Virus record (IMG/VR): IMGVR_UViG_2541047775_000007
Reading direction: 5' to 3' (one strand)
Source: a virus
Taxonomy: Duplodnaviria; Heunggongvirae; Uroviricota; Caudoviricetes
Length of the DNA stretch: 43,098 nucleotides
Positions 2,240 through 30,419 of this stretch are shown one piece after another (the first letter of the stretch is position 1; every line of letters starts with the position of its first letter). The notes beneath the pieces are model-generated. The model was not told where the DNA came from, searched no databases, and was given only the letters and a program-made list of their open reading frames with translations. A program made the translations under genes and the position numbers.

Positions 2240-2950
2240 CGCCTATAAGGCTCTCTTACCAGCCGCGCCCTAACAGGCGCACACGATCTGACATTTGCAT
2301 CCAACTTCGTTACTTACGGCCCGTAAACGGGCTGCCCGGATAGGGAATCGATAACTGCTCTCCCATTTTATCCTCTTCAAGCTGGTGCTTTATGTAATCC
2401 TGTATCTTCGCCGTGTTCTTACCCACTGTATCGACGTAGTACCCTCTGCACCAGAACTCCCTGTTCCTGTATTTGAATTTCAAATCACCAAACTGCTCGT
2501 AAAGCATCAGACTGCTTTTCCCTTTCAGATATCCCATAAACCCGGATACGCTCATTTTAGGCGGGATCTCCACAAGCATATGGATATGATCTGCACAGCA
2601 TTCAGCTTCCAGAATCCGTACGCTTTTCCACTCACACAGCTTTCTCAAAATACTGCCTATTGCTCTACGCTTCTCTCTGTAGAACACCTGTCTTCGGTAT
2701 TTTGGCGCAAAAACTATGTGATATTTACAGTTCCATCGGGTGTGCGCTAAGCTCTTTTCGTTCCCCATTGGGACCCCCTTTTGATTTCTTGTTTGACACT
2801 TGCAGTTGCCAGACCGCAAGGTGTTTTAACAAATCAAAAGGGGTTTTAATAACTGGCTCAAAGCTGAAAGCTTTCCGGAACCCCCAGCCTAGCTGGGGGT
2901 TTTCTGTGCACAAAAAACCCTCTGTAGTAACAGAGGGTTTTGTTCATTCA
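2240..2950 (-). mobile_element. IS200-like insertion sequence (boundaries approximate)
   Basis: Y1/HUH transposase ORF plus two strong hairpins upstream of it (acccccagc/gctgggggt near 2886-2908 and aaaccctctg/cagagggttt near 2908-2938), typical of the IS200 left-end structured region; ends not mapped precisely. Confidence 0.6.
2310..2768 (-). CDS. tnpA: IS200/IS605 family Y1 transposase TnpA (about 152 aa)
   Basis: Translation MGNEKSLAHTRWNCKYHIVFAPKYRR...HIHMLVEIPP...YIKHQLEEDK is recognisable as IS200 TnpA; ORF-track start at 2819 is probably an upstream extension. Confidence 0.88.
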   Translation of the reverse strand: MGNEKSLAHTRWNCKYHIVFAPKYRRQVFYREKRRAIGSILRKLCEWKSVRILEAECCADHIHMLVEIPPKMSVSGFMGYLKGKSSLMLYEQFGDLKFKYRNREFWCRGYYVDTVGKNTAKIQDYIKHQLEEDKMGEQLSIPYPGSPFTGRK

Positions 2951-3573: not shown

Positions 3574-4199
3574 ACCGCCAGCACCTTACTGGCATTGATG
3601 TATCGCGCGCGCCGGTCGTCGATGCCGTTCCGGCCACCATTGATAATCAGAGTTACACGTGCAATATCGCCGGTATACTTCATGCATCCTTTGCTGGCAA
3701 AGAACCACGCCGCGCTACGAGCCGCGTATTCGTCCTGCGCCAGCAGTTCAGGACTCTCCAGCAGGTCAACCTTAAGACCGTTTCCACAGTCACGATAGTT
3801 ATTCAAACCGGTAACCTGGATAAGCCCGCGCCCACGGTAGTTCCAGCCATCACCAGGGGCATTGTTCCCCATGCGTTTGCTGTACACCAGATTGGCAATC
3901 GCTCTCTGGCGCTCAAGTGGCAATGGTGGTTCGCCTGCACGTCGCCCCAATGCGTTGGCCTGTCCCTGAGTGAGACGCCCAGCCCGAACAAAGTTAGCCA
4001 GTCCGCTGACGCTGTAGTTGAAATTCTCCTGCAACCGGGTGAAGCCTCCAGACTCATGCCCGACCTGAGCAATAAACATAGCCTGATCTTCTGGTTTGCT
4101 GATACCAAACTCTTTCATCGCAGAAGTTATATGCGAGAACCAGCGTGCGGCCAGTGCCTCGCTGATACCAGCAGCTCGCTGGAATTGTTTAATCTCCAT
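3570..4199 (-). CDS. endolysin, glycoside hydrolase family 19 (chitinase-like) type
   Basis: Motifs [20 protein letters not shown] are characteristic of GH19 phage endolysins; no N-terminal hydrophobic SAR segment. Confidence 0.88.
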
Positions 4200-4497: not shown

Positions 4498-4897
4498 CGT
4501 CTTTTCTCCCCGGAATTAACTCGCGTGGATTATCGGAACGGTGATAGAGCCATATACCAATACGCACAGCGACAATTGCTGACACGAATGCGCCTGCAGA
4601 GAAAACAATCCCTTTTTCAAAAGAGTCCTGCGTGATGGTAGGGATCAGGCTGGCTATGCCGATAAGAATTGATGCTGCTGGTTTGTAAAAGAGAAGGCCG
4701 CAAAGAAAGCTGAGCATCGACAGGAGCACCCGGCGACGGATGGGGTACTCTACTGCAGAGGTAACAAAAATTACCGCTCCAGCCAAAGCACCCAAAGCAA
4801 CCTCAGGAGGAACTCCTGCTATCACCGCCGCCAGAGAACTCATGCTAAGCCACTGATTTAAAGTTTCACTGGTTAGTTGAGCTGACATGTTTTCCAC
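4484..4897 (-). CDS. holin/antiholin-like membrane protein (3-4 TM helices)
   Basis: RBS ggtgga before ATG; multiple hydrophobic helices and charged C-terminal tail; sits upstream of the holin-like gene and endolysin. Confidence 0.5.
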   Translation of the reverse strand: MENMSAQLTSETLNQWLSMSSLAAVIAGVPPEVALGALAGAVIFVTSAVEYPIRRRVLLSMLSFLCGLLFYKPAASILIGIASLIPTITQDSFEKGIVFSAGAFVSAIVAVRIGIWLYHRSDNPRELIPGRKDDGNA

Positions 4898-5090
4898 CGT
4901 TTATATGCATAACAACCTCCTGAACAGTAAAGCATTACGCATAATAAACCATTTATGGTTTTTTGTTACTTTAACATCGTCAATTCCCTGTTTTTCATGC
5001 CGAGAATAAAGCTCACCTTTTACATGACTCTGAAGAAACAAACAGTGAAGAGCAGGTTGAATACCGCACCATTTAATGGCGCGGTAGCAG

Positions 5091-5387
5091 TCAAATAGAG
5101 AAATAAACACAAAAACAAAAAACAACAGGAACAGCAAAATCCAACAGACTTCCCACATCCCACACGCGTGGATCAAAACCTCCCCACCACGGCATGTTGA
5201 TACGTTTCCCTTTCCCAAACTTTTCTATCCAGCGATATTCTGCCTGGGTGTGTTCACGCGCAATGAAGAACGTACAACCGGCTATCGCACCGTAAGCCCA
5301 GTTTCCGGTAAAAATACCAACCAGTACCTGAGCCACAAAAGCGCAAAGCGAGTGAAGAAATGGAGTGACATCAATGCTCTTAATCAT
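5091..5387 (-). CDS. small membrane protein (98 aa), translationally coupled to the tailspike gene
   Basis: Start codon overlaps tailspike stop (ATGA); 2-3 hydrophobic segments. Confidence 0.5.
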   Translation of the reverse strand: MIKSIDVTPFLHSLCAFVAQVLVGIFTGNWAYGAIAGCTFFIAREHTQAEYRWIEKFGKGKRINMPWWGGFDPRVWDVGSLLDFAVPVVFCFCVYFSI

Positions 5388-7573
5388 GAAACTTCCCCAT
5401 TGGTTGAAAATATGGCTCCTCCAACGCCAAGTGTATTTCGTGTTGTGCTCAACCTCAGAGGGCTGGAGTCAGAATTAGAATATCCTGTAGCAGAAATAAA
5501 AGATCCTCCACTAATAGTCAACTGCGGAACATCGGCTATATCTGAATAAGTTCTGTCAGCAACAGTATTATTTATAGCCACATATGATCCAAAAAAACTT
5601 CTTATTGTTTGGTTTTTAACTTTACTTCCTTCAATGGTTATCCTACTACCACAGTCGGCAATAAATCCTGAATCTGCATCCAGCGTTGCATTCATAAAAG
5701 AAGCTTCAGATCTCTCTACATCAATCCATCTAATATCTTTTGTGGGATTTGCACCAAATACATGACAAATATTAGAGTTAAACCTTACACCATCTTGGAG
5801 GTGCATTAATTTTTTTATATCTGTACCCCATAGCCTTGGAAAATTAACAGATGCTCCTGCATGGCAATCAAATCCCAGCTCAGCCCCTGAGATATCTACA
5901 GCCTTTCCTGAAATAACAGCACCAGTGTCTGCATTAACGGCTGTTCCACAATTGCGCATATCATTACCAGCAACATCAACGCAACCCGCACCATCAATAC
6001 GCACACCAAGTGCACATCCATAAAAACCTTTTTCAATATTTGGTTCAAGGACTTTACCACTTGTTTCTGCATCACTTTCTTCAACGTCATGTCGTCTTGC
6101 ATCAACATATGCTGTATGAATGCAGGTTAATCCACGATATGAGCAATGTATAGTTTTATGGTCGCGTATATTAACATTTGAACCATCTCTTACATTCCAT
6201 CCTATATAACAATAGCTTGCACTTGACCCCTGAAAATCTGCTTTAACATTATAAATACAATTAACTGACGCAACCGTACTCTCTGTGCACCGTTCAAACT
6301 TGCTTACAGGCATTGATGCCTTGACATTATTTACCAGTTGCAGGGAAGAGTATCTGCTATAAGAAAAATCACATACGTAATACCCTTCTGGCATATATGC
6401 AGCAACACTTTCCTCATCAGGAGCACATCCGGTATGATATGCACTAATTTTTGCACCAAAACTACCATGAATTCCAACGTAGAACTTTCGAGCACCTGAA
6501 TACGGATAGAAATTAAGTTCAGCTTTTTGAGTTACAATAAATGCACAAACATCGCTATCATCTCTATTTTCTTCGATCTGAATAGCAAATACAGGACTTT
6601 TTGCTGCATCGCAAATGTAAAATAAATACTTGTATTCGTAATACGTTCTAACGATTTTAGTAAACAAACGAGTGTCAGAGAAAACCACTGAGTCTTCTGA
6701 TGTTATTTTAATCCAAGACAAATCAACACCTGAACTGAATTCAATTTGATAGTTGATAATATGCCCGGTCTTAATTCTTATTTCGCAGAAAGCATTACCA
6801 CCATCCCACATAGGTCTCATTGACTGGGCTGCAATGATTGCATCTTTGAGTGTAGGGTAATCACCCCATTCGCCAACAGTAATAACAAAAGTATAATATG
6901 AGTTAAAAACAGCGGCATTTTTGCCTTTGGATATCAACTCCTTAATCATAAAAATATTATCTTCGTAATCACAAGGAGAAATTATATCCCTCATTTTGCT
7001 TTGAAATGTTCGTTGTCTTGCCCCGCTTCCTGACGGTATAAACCAACCAAAACCACCAACAACCCCGGCGATTGCAGCATCGACATAATTACGCATTGAG
7101 CGATTATTTACAGCATCCTGCTCAAGTGATGGATCTGCAAGGTTAGAAATTCTGTTTTGCTTTGCATCGTAATATTTTGCAAGCAGAGAGGGCTTCATCA
7201 ATGCACGTCTGAACCACCCAAAACATTGCTGGATCAGCATCGTCAGGTAGTCAAAGGCATCTTCATGCACTTCGGGGAAAAATTTTCCCTGATTGCGAAG
7301 GTCTGTCTCCTGCACTACATCAAGCACACGATCTATCGTAATTCGCCATCCAGTAGCAAGCGGAGACGGAAGAACCACAGAACCGCCACTATAAGTGCCC
7401 GCCCCAGTTACCGTATAACCGGTATCCAGGACCAATTCTGTTACGTTCCCGTTCAGGTCAGACACCTGAACAACCAGGTCTGATTTTCTGAAAATTCGAA
7501 AAGTATACGGAAACGATGTCGTAACGCCGTTACCGGTGTATTCGTTGTGGTCAACTTCGGTTGAGACCGTCAT
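5384..7573 (-). CDS. tailspike / tail fibre with conserved N-terminal virion-attachment domain and probable beta-helix receptor-binding/depolymerase body (729 aa)
   Basis: N-terminus MTVSTEVDHNEYTGNGVTTSFPYTFRIFRKSDLVV matches the conserved podovirus tail-fibre/tailspike N-domain motif; AT-rich body with many Cys and Asn/Gly repeats; RBS ggag before ATG. Confidence 0.8.
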   Translation of the reverse strand: MTVSTEVDHNEYTGNGVTTSFPYTFRIFRKSDLVVQVSDLNGNVTELVLDTGYTVTGAGTYSGGSVVLPSPLATGWRITIDRVLDVVQETDLRNQGKFFPEVHEDAFDYLTMLIQQCFGWFRRALMKPSLLAKYYDAKQNRISNLADPSLEQDAVNNRSMRNYVDAAIAGVVGGFGWFIPSGSGARQRTFQSKMRDIISPCDYEDNIFMIKELISKGKNAAVFNSYYTFVITVGEWGDYPTLKDAIIAAQSMRPMWDGGNAFCEIRIKTGHIINYQIEFSSGVDLSWIKITSEDSVVFSDTRLFTKIVRTYYEYKYLFYICDAAKSPVFAIQIEENRDDSDVCAFIVTQKAELNFYPYSGARKFYVGIHGSFGAKISAYHTGCAPDEESVAAYMPEGYYVCDFSYSRYSSLQLVNNVKASMPVSKFERCTESTVASVNCIYNVKADFQGSSASYCYIGWNVRDGSNVNIRDHKTIHCSYRGLTCIHTAYVDARRHDVEESDAETSGKVLEPNIEKGFYGCALGVRIDGAGCVDVAGNDMRNCGTAVNADTGAVISGKAVDISGAELGFDCHAGASVNFPRLWGTDIKKLMHLQDGVRFNSNICHVFGANPTKDIRWIDVERSEASFMNATLDADSGFIADCGSRITIEGSKVKNQTIRSFFGSYVAINNTVADRTYSDIADVPQLTISGGSFISATGYSNSDSSPLRLSTTRNTLGVGGAIFSTNGEVS

Positions 7574-7677
7574 GTTAAATCTCCAGATAGTCGCAGCACC
7601 CGTTGCGCCGCATATCTGGTTATTCTATTACCTGAAAAACCACATATGGATAAAAAGGCTGTAAATACGAATAGATA

Positions 7678-7692
7678 TTACCTTTCAGGTAA
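7678..7692. promoter_or_regulatory. operator-like palindrome TTACCTTTCAGGTAA (motif A)
   Basis: Perfect 5-bp inverted repeat with 5-bp spacer; one member of a family of at least 13 near-identical sites. Confidence 0.6.
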
Positions 7693-7729
7693 TTTGCAAA
7701 ACGTGCTGGATAGCAAACAAATTATTTGC

Positions 7730-7749
7730 TACTGTATAAATATACAGTT
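7730..7749. promoter_or_regulatory. LexA (SOS) box TACTGTATAAATATACAGTT
   Basis: CTGT-N8-ACAG core at 7732-7747 with AT-rich spacer, 18/20 match to the E. coli LexA consensus; 20 bp upstream of the start codon at 7769. Confidence 0.75.
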
Positions 7750-7768: not shown

Positions 7769-8026
7769 ATGCAGCGGTATCACTATCCACTGGAAGACGG
7801 ATTTACCGAAAGGATTCACACGCCGGGAGGCGTCAGGTCACTGGTGGAGGGATCGCACTTGATGAAATTACTCCGGGATCTCGATAAGGATGGATTTAAT
7901 GTCGATGGCCCACTTGCCGAACTGACTGCACTGATTAACTACGTTACCAGCTCACAGATGTCTATGCGGGATCTGCAAACACATCTCGACTATTGTGCCG
8001 AACAATTACGAAAACAAACCCGGTAA
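7769..8026 (+). CDS. small antirepressor-like protein (85 aa), paralog of the C-terminal domain of the 9177..9833 antirepressor
   Basis: RBS ggag 8 nt before ATG; sequence aligns with the Ant C-terminus (shared GV..L.E.S.LM.LL..L..DG..V.G..AELT....Y......RD.QTH..Y); LexA box immediately upstream. Confidence 0.65.
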   Translation: MQRYHYPLEDGFTERIHTPGGVRSLVEGSHLMKLLRDLDKDGFNVDGPLAELTALINYVTSSQMSMRDLQTHLDYCAEQLRKQTR

Positions 8027-8777: not shown

Positions 8778-8797
8778 TGCTTTTCCTCACAATAACA

Positions 8798-8905: not shown

Positions 8906-8942
8906 ATTTACATTGCACTCCTCTTGTGCCATAGTAATCGGG

Positions 8943-9018
8943 CACTGGCAAAATCCAGTGCCGGGATTGGTCTCCCGGATTACTAAGTGGCGCATACCAC
9001 GCCAGACGTGGTTTTTTT
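8943..9018 (+). promoter_or_regulatory. structured leader: three consecutive hairpins ending in an intrinsic terminator (ccacg-ccaga-cgtgg plus T7)
   Basis: Hairpins cactgg/ccagtg (8943-8960), ccggga/tcccgg (8961-8978), and terminator 8996-9018; no credible ORF. Confidence 0.45.
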
Positions 9019-9176
9019 ATGCGTATAGCACAGTCATGCCAGAATTATGGTGGGCTGAATGGGGGTCCGAAAGGACGCCGGTACCACTTAGGCCGGTAAG
9101 ACCAACTCCGTTCAGTTCACCACCATCTGATTGGTCTCAGCGGTGGTGATGTAATTCGCTAAGTGGAGACGCCATC

Positions 9177-9833
9177 ATGAACGCTCAACTCATCCCCGTA
9201 TTCAACGGCACTATATCTAACGAAACAGCCCTACTTTGTAATGCCCGCGATCTGCACACTTTTTTAGGTGTTAAAAAGGTGTTTGCAGCATGGATTACAA
9301 ATCGCATATCAGAATACGAATTCATTGAAAATCAAGACTATATTTTGCTTTCCAATTTGGGAAAGCAAACATCTGGTAGAGGCGGCCACAACCGCAAAGA
9401 GTACCACCTCACCCTTGATACAGCCAAAGAGCTGGCGATGGTCGAGCGTAACGAAAAAGGTCGCCAGGTGCGACGCTACTTCATTGAATGCGAGAAACGT
9501 TTAAGACAACAAGAAACAAAAGTGGAGAAGGTCTTGTCAGGCTTCATGCCCGCCATTATGGAGGCGATCAAGCTGGAAGACAAAAAAGAATACAGCGCCC
9601 CACTGAAGCCCGGCTACCGCAGCCTGATTCATTCTCCGTCTGGTGTTCTCGGACTGACGGAGAACTCACTGCTGATGAATCTGCTGAACCAGTTACAGGA
9701 AGACGGGCACGACGTATCGGGCGCGGCGGCGGAGCTGACCACCATGTTCTGCTACATCGTCGGTGTGAGCAAATGCCTGCGTGATATCCAGACGCACGCG
9801 GAGTACATCAACGACAAGGCAGGGTTCTTCTGA
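9177..9833 (+). CDS. phage antirepressor, AntA/AntB-type N-terminal domain plus C-terminal domain shared with the 7769..8026 protein (218 aa)
   Basis: N-terminus MNAQLIPVFNG...KVFAAWITNRISEYEFIENQDYIL...RYFIECEKRL resembles AntA/AntB antirepressor family; intrinsic terminator at 9843-9865 follows. Confidence 0.7.
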   Translation: MNAQLIPVFNGTISNETALLCNARDLHTFLGVKKVFAAWITNRISEYEFIENQDYILLSNLGKQTSGRGGHNRKEYHLTLDTAKELAMVERNEKGRQVRRYFIECEKRLRQQETKVEKVLSGFMPAIMEAIKLEDKKEYSAPLKPGYRSLIHSPSGVLGLTENSLLMNLLNQLQEDGHDVSGAAAELTTMFCYIVGVSKCLRDIQTHAEYINDKAGFF

Positions 9834-25589: not shown

Positions 25590-25882
25590 TCCTGTTCACT
25601 GGCCTCTTTGGCCATCTTCAAATACTGTTCAGGGCAATGCGCCATAACGCGCTGAAACAGTTCCAGCGCCAGATTGCGTTGCCCCTCATTAAATGCCATT
25701 GCCATAGAGTCCATCGGTGAGATAGCGGAAAACACACGGCCTTTCTCCAGCACCGACCAGACAACGCGACGCCCCTGTTCACTGCTCATGACAAAGCGAA
25801 TGTCATCAATTTCACGCTGTGCCATGTCACATTGCTTACGGGCGTTTTCTTCTTTCAGTTGATCATCTTCGTAATCTGTCAT
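25586..25882 (-). CDS. hypothetical head-assembly protein (98 aa)
   Basis: ORF overlapping portal stop and scaffold start. Confidence 0.45.
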   Translation of the reverse strand: MTDYEDDQLKEENARKQCDMAQREIDDIRFVMSSEQGRRVVWSVLEKGRVFSAISPMDSMAMAFNEGQRNLALELFQRVMAHCPEQYLKMAKEASEQE

Positions 25883-27558
25883 TGTGATTGCCCACCCTGA
25901 CCACTAACTGCATTCGCCATAGCTGACAAAACACTCGGATCCGAAGTTTTAGCTTCGCTTAGCGTCTTGGCACCCTGTGCCGCCGCCATCCCCATCGCCA
26001 TCATTTGTTGCTGCTGTTGTTGCTGTGCCCGTTGCTGGCGAGCCTGCTCAACCTGTTCCTGCGGAACAATGACGGTTGGAGACACTCCAGACATATCAGC
26101 GAATGCATCGATCGCCTGATCAACGTTGAGTTTGTCGAGAGCTTCTGGTTTCGCTTGCGCAAGTTGACCAATGAAGTTAACCGTGGATGCCAGACTGGAC
26201 AGGCCGATAGACTTCTGCGCCTGAGCCATGACGGAAATGTATTCGACCTTCAGGGGCATGCCTTCCATCGCGTCAGGCGGTGGCGGCAACATGTTTTTAC
26301 GCACCATCATCGAGAAAGCGCGGTCAATGAGAGGATTAAGACATTCGTCGTTCAGACGCTCCAGAACCGGCCCCAACATCAGAAGTTTTTCTTCTTTCAT
26401 TTCGATCACCGCTTCAACAGGCATCGAGCGGGTATTGATGTTCTGCAACATCATGAACAGATCGACAAAGTAGGCGCTGTTAATGATTTGACGAGTGTCC
26501 TGAATGTCTGCCACCAAATCTGCTGTACTGGGGTTAACCAGATAAGCAGGCCTGAAGCCATCCTGACCAGTAATCTGATCGATATACGTGATGTCGCCAG
26601 GAAGAAGGGAGGCGCGCTGATTCTTGAGGGAAGTCGGAGCAACCATCGGAGGATTGGTGGCTTTATCAATCAACTGCGACTTGCGCTTCTGGAGAAGCTG
26701 CAATGCCTTAACAGGTCCAAGCGCCAGCATACCCGGGCATGATGATCCATAAACATCTTCGCCGTTAACTTCCCAGCGCGGAGCCATAATTGGAAACTCA
26801 TCGAATCCGGACTCACGCAACAACTTGTCGTTATCGCCACCAACCTCGTAATAAACCGATTTGAATGGCTTGTTCTTGCTATCCAGCTTCGATGTATCGC
26901 GGTCAATGTTCGGGTAAACCGAATGCATCACTTCAATCCACTTCTCGTAGGTGCCGCTTTCCCACATGCTTTTTACGGATTCGCTGACGTTATTTAGTCC
27001 GAATTCCTGAACAAGCTGACGAACAGTCATAGAGAACTTGCGAAAACAGGTGTCCACACTGCCACGAGGTGAGTTAGCCAGGTAGTAACTTCCTATCGGG
27101 AATGGCATTGTACGAATGATGTCCTCGTCATCCTCCAGCACCGCCATTGCACCGGTGCTGTATGTGCCGAGGCTTCCGTATAACTGCGGCAGCGACTGAT
27201 AGAGATTCGACTTATTGAACATATCGTTCATGCGGTTCTGCACTGCCTCAAGCCACAACTTAACAGGGCCATAATCCATCATTTCAGGATCTGGCGTAGC
27301 CAGGCGAAACCACGGACGCGCGGGGCTTGTGATGCCCGACATCATGCCGCTGGCGAGAGTGCGCGCCGCCATAGTCCCAGTCGAATCAATAATGCGTGTA
27401 TTGCGTCGATCGTTACGGTTGACCTCAGAAGTCAGAAAGCGGGAACCACGCGGGTTGATGTAATCACTCAACTCGCGCCAGTGCGGCTCGAACGACTGAC
27501 GCTCGCTTTCAAGTTGTGCGAACTGTTTGTTCAATCGCTCTTTAGTTGTTTCCGCCAT
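25879..27558 (-). CDS. portal protein (559 aa)
   Basis: Size, position after the terminase genes, Gln/Ala-rich C-terminus typical of podovirus portals; RBS ggag. Confidence 0.8.
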   Translation of the reverse strand: MAETTKERLNKQFAQLESERQSFEPHWRELSDYINPRGSRFLTSEVNRNDRRNTRIIDSTGTMAARTLASGMMSGITSPARPWFRLATPDPEMMDYGPVKLWLEAVQNRMNDMFNKSNLYQSLPQLYGSLGTYSTGAMAVLEDDEDIIRTMPFPIGSYYLANSPRGSVDTCFRKFSMTVRQLVQEFGLNNVSESVKSMWESGTYEKWIEVMHSVYPNIDRDTSKLDSKNKPFKSVYYEVGGDNDKLLRESGFDEFPIMAPRWEVNGEDVYGSSCPGMLALGPVKALQLLQKRKSQLIDKATNPPMVAPTSLKNQRASLLPGDITYIDQITGQDGFRPAYLVNPSTADLVADIQDTRQIINSAYFVDLFMMLQNINTRSMPVEAVIEMKEEKLLMLGPVLERLNDECLNPLIDRAFSMMVRKNMLPPPPDAMEGMPLKVEYISVMAQAQKSIGLSSLASTVNFIGQLAQAKPEALDKLNVDQAIDAFADMSGVSPTVIVPQEQVEQARQQRAQQQQQQQMMAMGMAAAQGAKTLSEAKTSDPSVLSAMANAVSGQGGQSQ

Positions 27559-27572
27559 TTCAATGACTCCGG

Positions 27573-27779
27573 TTACTGACCAAGCAGCGTTTTACCGCTG
27601 GTATTAGCGGTTGATGTGTCGCCCTGAGAACCGGTAAGCAGCGTAGAACTACGACCAGCAGCAACGCGACGGCGACGAGTTTCTTCGTCGCGGGCATCAA
27701 CAACGGCGGCATCCTGCTCCTGTGGTGCTGCCTGAACTTCTGGTGTTGCAGGCACTGATGGTGAGCTACCCATGCACAT
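27573..27779 (-). CDS. small hydrophilic protein (68 aa) upstream of portal
   Basis: RBS context ggagtcattgatATG is nearly identical to the portal RBS context ggagtcattgaaATG. Confidence 0.45.
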   Translation of the reverse strand: MCMGSSPSVPATPEVQAAPQEQDAAVVDARDEETRRRRVAAGRSSTLLTGSQGDTSTANTSGKTLLGQ

Positions 27780-27847
27780 ATCAATGACTCCGTACGCAAT
27801 TAAATTATTACCAATTTAACCACATATGATTTATTTATCGTAGATAG

Positions 27848-27884
27848 TTGACATTTAACGCACAAATTATTACCTTTAAGGTAA
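27848..27884 (+). promoter_or_regulatory. promoter-like TTGACA (27848-27853) with operator TTACCTTTAAGGTAA (27870-27884)
   Basis: Consensus -35 hexamer followed by a motif A palindrome, pointing toward the tRNA island. Confidence 0.5.
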
Positions 27885-28206
27885 CCAAAGAGTTCATTCC
27901 GGTTACTAACCTGACTGGCTTGTCGTTAAATTGAACAGGTGGAGTGAGCTTTTATTTTGAGCAGTACGGCGTATGGCACATGCGCCGATAGCGGTCTGGA
28001 TACGTTTAAGGGGCACCCTCCCTTGCTCGGGCAAACGAACCAGGTAGCCGGAATGTGCAAGTCGAGCGGTTTTATTCCGCGCACGGGGATTCACCATCCC
28101 GGCGATTCGGTGTGACGCCTCGGAAGAGACGAGGGTACAACGATGAGAGCATTTATGGAGCCGCGACAAAGTGTGGCGCCTTAACAGGCTAAGTGCTCTC
28201 AGCGTT

Positions 28207-28283
28207 GTGGCATTAGCTCAGTTGGACAGAGCAACCGCCTTCTAAGCGGTTGGTCGCAGGTTCGAATCCTGCATGCCACGCCA
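28207..28283 (+). tRNA. tRNA-Arg (anticodon TCT), phage-encoded
   Basis: Manual cloverleaf: acceptor gtggcat/atgccac, D-arm gctc...gagc, anticodon stem accgc/gcggt with loop CTTCTAA, T-arm gcagg-ttcgaat-cctgc, discriminator G plus encoded CCA. Confidence 0.85.
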
Positions 28284-28326
28284 GAATCACGCCTAAGGAC
28301 CGTGATGCCAGAAGTTCCAGGGGCTT

Positions 28327-28369
28327 GGCGGTGATGGTTTCCCTTGAATGACTATCACCGCCCTTTTTA
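28327..28369 (+). terminator. intrinsic terminator after the tRNA (ggcggtgat...atcaccgcc plus T5)
   Basis: 9-bp stem with large loop followed by CTTTTT. Confidence 0.55.
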
Positions 28370-28446
28370 CAGCAGGACGCCATTGCGATGACTTCATGCT
28401 GTAAACCAGTACAGCCACGGAAGGCATAACTCATTGCTTCCAGTTC

Positions 28447-28470
28447 GCCCGGTTCGCCGGGCATTTTTTT
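28447..28470 (+). terminator. hairpin plus T7 immediately upstream of the 28482 RBS (attenuator-like)
   Basis: gcccgg-ttcg-ccgggc followed by TTTTTTT, 11 bp before aaggtgag RBS. Confidence 0.5.
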
Positions 28471-28481
28471 AAGGTGAGATT

Positions 28482-28853
28482 ATGAACGACCAGCAAATCG
28501 AAAAAGAAATCGTTGAGAAAGGCAAAACTGCTCCGCGCGTTACGCCAGACCATATCGAAAGCATTATTGCTCAGGAGGCATATTTCACAGCAGAGGATGG
28601 TGCCTTTGGCAAAGCCATAAAAGCGAAACATACTGGCGGAGAGGTAAACTACCAGCCGCACGAATCACTTTCTCTGCTGACGTTCTGCGTCCTGGTGCTG
28701 CGCAACGGCTTCACCGTCACCGGAGAGAGCGCCTGTGCAAGCCCGGAAAACTTTGATGCAGAAATTGGTCGGAAGATTGCCCGGCAGAATGCTGTAAACA
28801 AAATCTGGATGCTTGAAGGTTACTTGCTGAAGCAGAAGTTAAGCGAGCAATAA
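28482..28853 (+). CDS. conserved phage protein, possibly Gp49-like family (123 aa)
   Basis: RBS aaggtgag; motif LRNGFTVTGESACASPENFDAEIGRKIARQNA recalled as the N4 gp49 / Sf6 gp66-like family (from memory, not verified). Confidence 0.5.
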   Translation: MNDQQIEKEIVEKGKTAPRVTPDHIESIIAQEAYFTAEDGAFGKAIKAKHTGGEVNYQPHESLSLLTFCVLVLRNGFTVTGESACASPENFDAEIGRKIARQNAVNKIWMLEGYLLKQKLSEQ

Positions 28854-28857
28854 CACC

Positions 28858-28869
28858 GTGACATGTCAT
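28858..28869. other. palindrome GTGACATGTCAT (motif C copy 2)
   Basis: Sits between the stop of 28482..28853 and the terminator at 28874-28901. Confidence 0.55.
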
Positions 28870-28873
28870 AAAC

Positions 28874-28901
28874 AGCCAGCCTATGAGCTGGCTTTGTTTT
28901 A
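28874..28901 (+). terminator. rho-independent terminator (agccagc-ctatg-gctggct plus TTGTTTT)
   Basis: 7-bp stem and T-run; convergent with terL. Confidence 0.7.
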
Positions 28902-28943
28902 TCCTCACCAGAGGATATCAATGACATTATCCCCACCAGCGGA

Positions 28944-30419
28944 TTAAGCATAGGGATCGTAATCTGTAATGGCCTTGCCTTGCTGGTTCTGCTGCCCGGG
29001 AAGTCGCAGGCGCTTTGACACCGGGAAAGCAAACGTCAGCAGTAGCGCATCGCCTTTACCAGGAGAACGCCCAAGACGCTCTTTGATATCTTCCTTCGGT
29101 TCGATAACGATTTTACCGTCCACACGAACTTTGTACTCTGCCGCCGACAGGTCGTCTGCAGTTTCCTGGTCATCCAGCATGCCGCCCAGCCTCAGCCATG
29201 TCTTACATGAGTTGAACATCTCCCCACGCTTGTTAAGCATCTGCGGGTCAGTGGACGCACCGCCGAACGGAACAAGTTGCCATGTACGCCCCCAGCCATC
29301 ACCGATTGACTTCAAACCGGTTCCGTAACCGAAGTCGATGAACACCGCGTCAGCCTGATACTGGTCTTCAAAGTCAGCGATACGCTTCGCCATTATCAGA
29401 TCGTCAGTGGTCTTGTTGCCAGTCCACAGCACCTTACTGTGCAGCCCCTGCCGCAGGTATATCACAGCGTCATCAACTCCGGAGTATGCCGGGTCAACGC
29501 CGATTATCACCGGAGCATGTGCAACCTGCGCAGCGGTTACCACCCGTTTCATTGCCTCATCAGTAAGACCGGTAGGGATAAACTGCAATTCAGATGCATC
29601 AGGGAATATGCCGCGCACACGGATTTTAACGAAGTCGCTGTCTTCCCCGTAGTCATCAACCCATTTCTGCAACTGCTGTTTGTTAGTGCCTTCCACCGTC
29701 CGGCTGTCAATCTGCGCAGTTTTCCAGCGGTGTTTGTATTTGCGGAAACATTCGCGAAAACGCCCGGTGTTACGTGTAGGGTTTCCGAACGCCACCCAGA
29801 TAATCTCAGTGTCTTCGTCCGTTAGCGCACCCTCGGCAACTTCCCACACCAGATCCGCAATGTTCGACGCTTCATCGAATACCACGATGATGCGTTTGCG
29901 CTCGTTGTGTAGTCCGGCGAATGCCTCAGTGTTGTGCTCAGACCAGGGGATTGCGTCAGCTCGCCACCGTTTGTCGTGCCCAGGATCATTGCTGTACATC
30001 GCGGTAGCGGTACAGGTAAACCAGTCTTTCGTGATAGCAAGGTTCGACCACTTGATAATTTCCGGCCAGGTCTTCGTTCGTAGCTGGTTGTCGGTGTTGG
30101 CGGTCACCACGACCTTACAATCCTCGCAAGTGGACATGCCCCAGTTGATCAGCATTGAGATGAATGCGGATTTACCAATACCGTGACCAGAAGCGCGTGC
30201 CAGCATAAGCGGCTGATAGCGCGTCTCTGGATTCTGCAGGTGATCACGTATCTCTCTGAACGCATCGGCCTGCCACTGACGTGGACCGGTGGCATGTGCC
30301 AGTTCAGTACCCTCTTCCCCCCACGGGAACGCATAGAGGGCATAGCCAAGCGGATCGTGAGTGAACCCTGCAATATCCTCGATTAACTGCTCTTCAGGAG
30401 ATAACGCTGTATCTGTCAC
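28944..30419 (-). CDS. terminase large subunit (491 aa)
   Basis: Walker A-like GHGIGKS, acidic nuclease-domain residues, position after terS. Confidence 0.85.
   Translation of the reverse strand: MTDTALSPEEQLIEDIAGFTHDPLGYALYAFPWGEEGTELAHATGPRQWQADAFREIRDHLQNPETRYQPLMLARASGHGIGKSAFISMLINWGMSTCEDCKVVVTANTDNQLRTKTWPEIIKWSNLAITKDWFTCTATAMYSNDPGHDKRWRADAIPWSEHNTEAFAGLHNERKRIIVVFDEASNIADLVWEVAEGALTDEDTEIIWVAFGNPTRNTGRFRECFRKYKHRWKTAQIDSRTVEGTNKQQLQKWVDDYGEDSDFVKIRVRGIFPDASELQFIPTGLTDEAMKRVVTAAQVAHAPVIIGVDPAYSGVDDAVIYLRQGLHSKVLWTGNKTTDDLIMAKRIADFEDQYQADAVFIDFGYGTGLKSIGDGWGRTWQLVPFGGASTDPQMLNKRGEMFNSCKTWLRLGGMLDDQETADDLSAAEYKVRVDGKIVIEPKEDIKERLGRSPGKGDALLLTFAFPVSKRLRLPGQQNQQGKAITDYDPYA

Follow-up and report, generated by a model that had tools for sequence, protein, structure and literature searches.

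A conserved pseudoknotted RNA in repressor-controlled early operons of Uetakevirus, lambdoid and P1-like phages

The island between the terminase and portal genes

The window analysed here is the whole stretch of 43,098 nucleotides (nt) of the IMG/VR virus record IMGVR_UViG_2541047775_000007. An island located on its plus strand contains, in a non-coding leader, a conserved structured RNA of about 175 nt (hereafter, the core), which is the main subject of this work. In the 1.1-kb region of the island, identity is 96% to Escherichia phage phiV10 and 98-99% to many E. coli prophages, which identifies the window as an epsilon15/phiV10-like (Uetakevirus) prophage. The island is flanked by the gene of the large terminase (28944-30419, minus strand) and by a gp3-like open reading frame (ORF; 27573-27779, minus strand), beyond which the portal gene is located (25879-27558, minus strand). 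It consists of an operator-overlapped promoter, about 330 nt of non-coding RNA, a transfer RNA (tRNA) gene for tRNA-Arg(UCU), two intrinsic terminators, and an ORF of the Phage_gp49_66 family, in this order. An earlier, sequence-only reading of this DNA described a plus-strand tRNA-Arg(UCU) cassette between terminase and portal, antisense to the late operon; the coordinates and strands agree with this description, and nearly all the sequence features that it listed were recovered in place. Its statement that the island had been inserted is misleading, because such an island, whose cargo varies, belongs to the normal gene order of the Uetakeviruses examined. Equivalent islands with differing cargo are present in phiV10, SPN9TCW, epsilon15, Tyrion, PAT1, and a Klebsiella relative; some of them carry a tRNA and others do not. 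The tRNA island as such is ordinary and has already been annotated in relatives. Its features are as follows.

27848-27885, + strand: early promoter and repressor operator, from the sequence and the operator consensus of the annotated epsilon15 sites
27880-27963, + strand: 5' part of the leader, specific to Uetakeviruses (Tyrion, PAT1, and epsilon15 match at BLAST query positions 40-122)
27964-28140, + strand: structured RNA core (MAFFT alignment, pair counts, covariance model score of 144.9 bits)
27967-27987, + strand: P1 hairpin, with covariation in the lower stem
27991-27999 with 28040-28048, + strand: long-range helix P2, closing a variable insert
28043-28061, + strand: near-invariant segment GGUAGCCGGAAUGUGCAAG, from the alignment
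~28062-28084, + strand: P3, variable
28086-28089 with 28097-28100, + strand: P4, with a 7-nt loop
28092-28095 with 28109-28112, + strand: pseudoknot, in which the loop CACC pairs with a downstream GGUG
28118-28122 with 28130-28134, + strand: P5, with a conserved GAAGAGA loop
28140-28206, + strand: 3' extension hairpin AACGAUGAGAGCA ... UGCUCUCAGCGUU, present in the minimum-energy and centroid folds and abutting the 5' end of the tRNA
28207-28283, + strand: tRNA-Arg, anticodon UCU, encoded CCA (ARAGORN; Rfam RF00005; annotated as tRNA-Arg in RefSeq relatives)
28286-28306, + strand: post-tRNA hairpin AUCACG...CGUGAU, conserved in 27/27 aligned Uetakevirus variants and also found in the phiNP leader
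28327-28362, + strand, with a U-tract to 28368: predicted intrinsic terminator T1, a long GC-rich hairpin (about -22 kcal/mol by the author's script)
28399-28414, no strand assigned: LexA-like palindrome CTGTAAACCAGTACAG, present as a motif and rejected as an SOS box
28447-28470, + strand: predicted intrinsic terminator T2, GCCCGG-UUCG-CCGGGC plus U7 (terminator scan), 11 nt before the ribosome-binding site (RBS)
28482-28853, + strand: cargo ORF of 123 amino acids (aa), Phage_gp49_66 (Pfam PF13876, E = 2e-35; phrog_322)
28874-28901, + strand: predicted terminator (terminator scan; annotated as a terminator in phiV10)

The sequence-only reading had also proposed an operator-controlled promoter with a consensus -35 box, and both of its parts were found. 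The -35 sequence TTGACA (27848-27853) is followed, after a 17-nt spacer, by the -10 sequence TACCTT (27871-27876), which is overlapped by the operator ATTACCTTTAAGGTAAC (27869-27885). All seven sites annotated as 'repressor' in the epsilon15 genome have the form ATTACC-N5-GGTAAT, which the operator of the island fits. The window contains 12 operator sites with at most one mismatch, versus 0.04 expected, and they are clustered around the immunity and antirepressor regions. This excess, together with the epsilon15 consensus, indicates that the island promoter is very probably controlled by the prophage repressor and fires early. The promoter was not listed by a simple promoter scan because its -10 sequence matches the consensus at only 3/6 positions. 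Judging from the position of the promoter, transcription would start near 27880.

Structure and genomic contexts of the core

The core, a conserved structured RNA of about 175 nt, has five helices, including a pseudoknot. It also contains long near-invariant single-stranded segments, and about 60 of its nucleotides are near-invariant. The 5' part of the leader (27880-27963) is kept among Uetakeviruses only. By itself, the fold of the leader has a z-score of only -2.4; it is the comparative analysis that shows the conserved structure. In a MAFFT alignment of 27 representatives below ~93% identity, 93.7% of the cells are paired, and double changes are observed in 11 pairs (69 cells). The covariation score was reached by none of 500 shuffles, and sliding the partners by 1-3 columns lowered the paired fraction to 26-46%. 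A second, differently ascertained genome set, whose alignment was fitted to the model, gave 95.6% paired cells and 10 doubly changed pairs. The C-G pairs of the pseudoknot are swapped for A-U in a lambdoid subgroup and in a Kosakonia copy. RNAalifold additionally indicated a long-range pairing of GCACAU (27976-27981) with AUGUGC (28053-28058); both strands are invariant, and hence the alignment neither supports nor excludes it. The 3' extension hairpin is common to the lambdoid leaders, where it has a variable insert, and its presence in phiNP, which has no core, indicates that it is a separate module.

Length differences between the P3 helices of relatives are not multiples of three, and the leader can thus be considered non-coding. 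Protein coding was rejected for the same reason and because the short ORFs of the leader are not conserved. The sequence UGCUCUCAGCG (28194-28204) was tried as a boxA-like element and rejected as well: it agrees with only 6/8 positions of boxA and is paired within the 3' hairpin.

All 4227 models of Rfam 15 were searched over 27700-28950, both at the gathering thresholds and at E <= 10. At the gathering thresholds, the tRNA was the sole match; at E <= 10, there were only weak chance matches, none of which lies over 27964-28140 on the plus strand, and the same holds for the lambdoid copy of the core. A covariance model (R1) was built from the 27-representative alignment. It finds one copy of the core per locus, with a single exception, and in the window it found no second copy, either in the PR operon or elsewhere. 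The exception is the locus L031, where two tandem cores (3994-4155 and 4801-4960, minus strand) lie ~650 nt apart. The second of them is degenerate (116.9 versus 152.3 bits), and its copy of the otherwise invariant 19-mer is changed.

No prior description of the core was found in the searchable literature on put-like RNAs, prophage small RNAs, the P1 ban operon, and structured-RNA surveys, which does not include the put-like set of King 2011. As far as Rfam 15 and this literature show, the RNA family is undescribed. The earlier suggestion that the leader of ~300 nt is hairpin-rich and non-coding is borne out. The covariance-model search recovers the tRNA and no Rfam family over the core, and the structure, with compensatory changes across three phage lineages, is conserved far beyond chance hairpins. 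The same reading called the leader unexplained. The leader is real and non-coding, but it had been missed that it contains a member of a widespread, horizontally shuffled RNA family with no fixed link to tRNAs.

A BLAST search for distant relatives of the leader returned Uetakeviruses and, at ~80-83% identity over 27966-28206, other phages. The lambdoid matches are cdtI, mEp460, 2H10, Ayreon, and Stx2c- and Stx2a-converting phages, and the P1-like matches are P1, P7, D6, SJ46, and RCS47; the core is thus found in three unrelated temperate enterobacterial phage groups, namely Uetakevirus, lambdoid, and P1/P7. The exact 19-mer GGTAGCCGGAATGTGCAAG from the middle of the element is present in more than 120 viral contigs, which represent ~100 distinct variants. 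A search with the pattern of the 5' hairpin revealed 23 loci in a species-representative genome set, all of them in Enterobacterales with two exceptions: a match in Acidovorax, which scores only 11 bits by model R1, and a Bacillota-labelled metagenome contig with a full-length copy. The 19-mer is almost invariant in this set fished by the 5' hairpin, so its conservation is not an artefact of ascertainment. The core was detected in 1840 of 5426 complete E. coli genomes (34%), at 1917 chromosomal places and 554 on plasmids, and among the matches listed none has an annotation under it.

The layout of the Uetakevirus islands is an operator promoter, ~85 nt, the core, the 3' hairpin, a tRNA-Arg or none, a conserved hairpin, T1, a spacer, T2, and the cargo. 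In epsilon15, the core is reduced to the P1 hairpin and the beginning of P2 (L006:2793-2897), and the depositors annotated an RNase III site there. In lambdoid phages, as exemplified by cdtI, the order is cI, a terminator, PL with its operators, ~45 nt, the core, and the 3' hairpin, followed by a GUGGU...ACCAC cassette in the tRNA slot, T1, another hairpin, and the first early-left gene. The TTGACA box of the cdtI PL lies at 2921-2926, and the core begins at ~3000. In the lambdoid carriers cdtI, mEp460, and the Stx2c phages, the stretch from PL to the first early-left gene contains no ORF, which means that the N gene is missing from its canonical place. In P1 and P7, the core starts 15 nt past a tRNA-Ile and ~110 nt before ban, in the C1-controlled ban operon.

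In all three contexts, the core is always on the sense strand of repressor-controlled early operons. Promoter-like sites at most 450 nt upstream were found on the sense strand in 81/127 contexts and on the antisense strand in 25/127, and the distances from the start to the core cluster at 20-45 and ~80 nt. At more than half of the core loci there is no adjacent tRNA; where one is adjacent, it is on the same strand. An obligate link between the core and tRNAs was rejected, since most lambdoid copies have no adjacent tRNA, and ARAGORN and Rfam are negative after the lambdoid copy.

Several other non-coding modules can be noted in these leaders. The lambdoid cassette in the tRNA slot is ~110 nt long (cdtI L004:3233-3350, SfV L159:2176-2300); its interiors differ, it is always closed by the acceptor-stem-like GUGGU...ACCAC, and neither ARAGORN nor Rfam calls a tRNA in it. 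The insert of the 3' hairpin in SPN9TCW (L003:2800-2895) and phiNP (L160:1975-2105) contains two hairpins with T-loop-like 7-nt loops, UUCGAUU and UUCAAUU. A stretch of 79 nt in P1 (69,644-69,722; L010:1622-1700), under the 'plp' ORF and on the strand of the ban operon, is 88% identical to the phiNP PL leader (L160:1897-1975). This likeness suggests another shared non-coding module and makes the plp ORF call doubtful.

Phages SfV and phiNP have their cI-type repressors, PL, T1, and early-left genes in common with cdtI, but the core is absent from them. In SfV, the early-left operon continues to xis and int. The element located right after PL in these two phages aligns with putL and putR of phage HK022, sharing the motifs GAAC(G/A)GGC, G(U/C)C(G/U/C)GGG(A/U/G)GC, and C(A/C/G)(A/G)GGAUGA, and is a putative put-like RNA. 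HK022 put RNA suppresses termination without protein factors through the zinc-binding domain of the beta-prime subunit of RNA polymerase. It is ~70 nt long and forms two stem-loops (PMC9378689). The put-like leader RNA is abundant: besides SfV (L159:1508-1592) and phiNP (L160:1622-1706), it was found in 88 viral-contig contexts. A third leader type (L287 and L295) has a long hairpin GAAGCGCACUC...GGAGUGCGCUUC right after PL, whose 3' arm is similar to the part of the leader that immediately precedes the core and is specific to Uetakeviruses.

SfV and cdtI have the same cI, PL, and T1 and differ in the RNA that follows PL. Leaders were sampled by a sequence downstream of T1, independently of the core and of the put-like element. 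Among the 69 distinct leaders obtained, 34 contain only the put-like element, 22 only the core, none both, and 13 neither (Fisher p = 3e-9, uncorrected for relatedness). When contexts were fished by the put-like element, 1/88 distinct ones carried the core. Lambdoid phages that lack N and have this early-left operon have been noted previously, and RNA-mediated antitermination has been suggested for them (PMC12315714).

Downstream features of the island and other elements of the window

The predicted terminators T1 and T2 are both kept in the relatives from E. coli, Salmonella, and Klebsiella, and their stems show compensatory changes. The compensatory variants of the T1 stem are GGCGGUGAUGG, GGCGGUGGCAG, and GGCGGUACCAG; the last of them, found in some Uetakeviruses, matches the lambdoid T1 stem by eye (no identity was computed). 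In the Salmonella relatives, CGG/CCG of the T2 stem is replaced with CAC/GUG, and T2 is annotated as a rho-independent terminator in epsilon15. A permissive terminator script did not separate the strands (102/114 versus 97/114 contexts); no enrichment of terminators is therefore claimed, and only T1 and T2, each conserved in its own right, are used here. The two successive terminators pointed out earlier, the second of them 11 nt before the RBS, are thus conserved. The arrangement of a terminator before an RBS, which that reading left unexplained, is a conserved module shared with the lambdoid PL leaders.

The cargo ORF, described earlier as a conserved phage ORF of 123 aa, matches Phage_gp49_66 with 121.5 bits (cut-off 27). 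In relatives, the cargo slot holds other genes, for example that of a Tad2-like domain protein in a Klebsiella phage. The LexA-like core reported at 28399-28414 exists as a motif, but it is not conserved as an SOS box, since its 3' half is lost in the Salmonella and Klebsiella relatives and in epsilon15. The pattern CTGT-N8-ACAG occurs three times in the window, versus 0.55 expected.

The scan for tRNA genes over the region identified tRNA-Arg(UCU) by ARAGORN (anticodon tct at position 35) and by Rfam (RF00005, 73.3 bits versus a gathering score of 29). It is a standard, well-scoring tRNA in a phage rich in AGA and AGG, like other phage-borne argU-like tRNA-Arg(UCU); its acceptor and anticodon stems differ from those of E. 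coli argU. The 49 ORFs of the window use 8.65 AGA and 5.05 AGG per 1000 codons; the respective values for E. coli genes are ~2 and ~1. The supply of AGA/AGG decoding, proposed earlier for this tRNA, is plausible at such values. The enrichment is concentrated in the tailspike, early, and accessory genes and does not extend to the head genes. A rare-codon reading of the tRNA is reasonable. An ORF of 729 aa (5384-7573, minus strand) with no Pfam match, taken as the tailspike from its size and position, has 15 AGA and 5 AGG codons, and the head genes have none.

Other regulatory elements were noted elsewhere in the window. A textbook LexA box, TACTGTATAAATATACAGTT (7730-7749), and a repressor operator (7677-7693) immediately precede the RBS and ATG start codon of a small ORF (7770-8026) with no Pfam match; this arrangement resembles the LexA-controlled antirepressor of the related phage SPC32H. 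Next, Rfam isrK (8942-9018) and C4 antisense RNA (9043-9127) are found in tandem upstream of an ORF with an AntA domain (9177-9833), and repressor operators at 8797, 8890, and 9906 flank this module. Here a Uetakevirus has an RNA-controlled antirepressor module like immI of P1/P7, adjoining the LexA-controlled one. The Hfq-binding small RNA STnc490 has a full-length match of 146 bits at 2778-2901 (minus strand).

Possible roles of the core and comparison with known systems

The core probably acts on the transcription of repressor-controlled early operons. We tentatively favour the possibility that it is a cis-acting antitermination RNA that modifies RNA polymerase, and the course of events that we infer, including expression and processing of the core, would be as follows. 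The island would be an immediate-early transcription unit controlled by the repressor, and upon derepression or infection the host RNA polymerase would start near 27880. The transcript would contain, in order, the pseudoknotted core, the hairpin, and the tRNA-Arg(UCU), which would be released by RNase P and 3' processing. Once folded, the core would act in cis on the polymerase that has made it, as the unrelated HK022 put RNAs do. Elongation would then resist intrinsic and Rho-dependent termination, and the polymerase would pass T1 and T2, escape any Rho action on the ~600 nt of untranslated RNA, and reach the cargo ORF. In the lambdoid phages without N at its usual place, the core, located 20-45 nt past the PL start, would let transcription continue across the homologous T1 into the early-left operon, and in P1/P7 it would carry the transcript of the ban operon across the untranslated tRNA-Ile region into ban. 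In all three contexts, resistance to termination would be useful, given the long, untranslated, RNA-rich early leaders.

This possibility is favoured by several observations. Strong conserved predicted terminators lie between the core and the first ORF in the Uetakevirus and lambdoid contexts. Phages of the cdtI type have neither an N gene in the canonical place nor a put-like element. The RNA structure is under selection, and the early operons in which it is found, always in sense orientation, are repressor-controlled. Most of all, the core and the put-like element occupy one slot, before the same terminator and operon, almost never together; this is the strongest argument that the core acts like put.

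Several facts weigh against antitermination. The statistic of exclusivity ignores the shared ancestry of the leaders, and the put-like RNA and the core occur in tandem at ten loci of the core-selected sets, which means that they are not strictly redundant. Some leaders (L298, L302, L286, L296) have T1 and neither element, so passing T1 does not strictly need one of them. In epsilon15, the core was mostly lost along with the tRNA and T1, and T2 and the ORF were kept. In P1, a long distance separates the promoter from the core, which just precedes the last two genes of the operon, and no clear terminator was seen between the core and ban. A comparison of the leader with the HK022 immunity region by BLAST gave only chance 8-10-mers, and model R1 found no match in HK022. 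The put motifs, of the CARGGAUGA type, are absent from the core. Finally, put is present once per early operon, whereas the core is single-copy in each phage, with none in the PR operon.

The main rival explanation, which we regard as rather doubtful, treats the core as an RNA gene that is transcribed together with tRNAs and small RNAs and yields a stable, processed RNA acting in trans. Its ends would be produced by RNase P, RNase E, and 3' trimming at the flanking tRNA, or by termination at T1, and early in infection the RNA would bind a conserved host or defence macromolecule as a sponge, decoy, or inhibitor. Such an RNA would agree with a self-contained unit shuffled among P1-like, lambdoid, and Uetakevirus genomes at ~80% identity and with sharp boundaries. 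The abutting tRNAs would define its ends: the core begins 15 nt after the P1 tRNA-Ile, and in the window the hairpin runs to the 5' end of the tRNA-Arg. The early operons can also be regarded as islands of RNA genes, with dicF-like RNAs, tRNAs, and the module common to P1 and phiNP; a dicF-like region and a 'mid' module occur both in the lambdoid leaders and in the P1 ban operon. The tandem arrangement with the put-like RNA and the P1 copy without an obvious downstream terminator are likewise easier to explain by action in trans, the long near-invariant single-stranded segments suggest a conserved partner, and the adjoining cargo can be an anti-defence gene, such as that of the Tad2-like domain protein. 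However, a trans-acting RNA leaves both the exclusivity with the put-like RNA in the same slot and the strong promoter-proximal bias unaccounted for, and accumulation of such an RNA has not been reported in the searchable literature.

Two other explanations are less likely than both antitermination and a trans-acting RNA. The core could be a platform for processing or stability: it would protect the early transcript at its 5' end or direct cleavage by RNase P and RNase E, so that the tRNA and the downstream mRNA mature efficiently. In two contexts it is indeed at or near the 5' end of the predicted transcript; in P1 it comes right after the 3' end of a tRNA, where the ban mRNA would otherwise begin with a monophosphate, and in the window the hairpin abuts the RNase P site. 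We nevertheless consider this role unlikely, because the adjacent tRNA is missing at more than half of the loci and a simple hairpin would suffice for it; the pseudoknot and the roughly 60 near-invariant nucleotides suggest a more specific role. Still less probable is that the core senses a ligand or cleaves itself, as a new riboswitch or ribozyme, and thereby gates or cuts the early transcript. The size, the pseudoknot, and the invariant nucleotides are typical of aptamers and ribozymes, and small ribozymes, e.g., theta/HDV-like ones, are known beside phage tRNAs. However, no Rfam riboswitch or ribozyme model matched at E <= 10, and the core does not overlap T1, from which it is separated by a hairpin and an entire tRNA; this would leave no classical expression platform. 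The view of the island as an ordinary tRNA moron with an incidental hairpin-rich spacer and a LexA-regulated downstream gene fits the real tRNA, promoter, terminators, and ORF and the high use of AGA/AGG, but it is already contradicted and very improbable, since the leader is conserved with compensatory changes in three phage lineages and occurs without a tRNA, and the LexA core is not conserved.

If the antitermination reading is correct, it would explain early-left expression in many lambdoid prophages lacking N, including Stx2c- and cdt-converting phages. The core is among the commonest unannotated structured RNAs in E. coli, on both chromosomes and P1-like plasmids, and is located in the first-transcribed region of three phage lineages, adjoining variable cargo slots. 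It may represent an undescribed class of phage RNAs that reprogram the host RNA polymerase without a protein factor and that would have spread among lambdoid, P1-like, and epsilon15-like phages through exchange of modules; the alternative, a neutraliser of a conserved host factor at the start of infection, would be equally new. We hold this view tentatively.

Among the known systems, structured RNAs of virulent and temperate phages can be compared with the core. The tRNA cluster of the virulent phage T4 includes the stable structured RNAs C and D, which are co-transcribed with tRNAs and presumably released by tRNA-processing enzymes. The core, likened to them by description only, differs in that it comes from temperate phages and often has no tRNAs nearby. 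GOLLD, ROOL, and theta (HDV-like) RNAs are structured RNAs of phages and prophages that are often found beside tRNA genes; unlike them, the core matches no Rfam model, is much smaller than GOLLD and ROOL, and has no recognised HDV-like architecture. The C4 RNA of P1/P7 and the CI RNA of P4 are processed from transcripts of early or immunity leaders in temperate phages, as the core may be, and P1 has both C4 and the core. C4 is, however, a different family that acts by antisense pairing; the window has its own C4 at 9043-9127.

The closest parallel is HK022 put. Like put, the core belongs to a promoter-proximal leader, is oriented in sense within early operons under repressor control, precedes terminators, and is found in lambdoid phages lacking N, where it occupies the same slot after PL that is held by the put-like RNA in SfV and phiNP. 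Unlike put, it is ~175 nt long, has five helices including a pseudoknot, shows no similarity to put in sequence or by covariance model, occurs also in P1-like and epsilon15-like phages, and is sometimes in tandem with a put-like RNA. To our knowledge, processive antitermination by RNA alone is known from essentially one family, that of HK022 put. If the core is an antiterminator, it would be a second, unrelated antiterminator RNA, that is, a new and non-homologous version of a known mechanism, and RNA polymerase could be captured in more than one way; if the core instead acts in trans on a host factor, the mechanism would be newer still.

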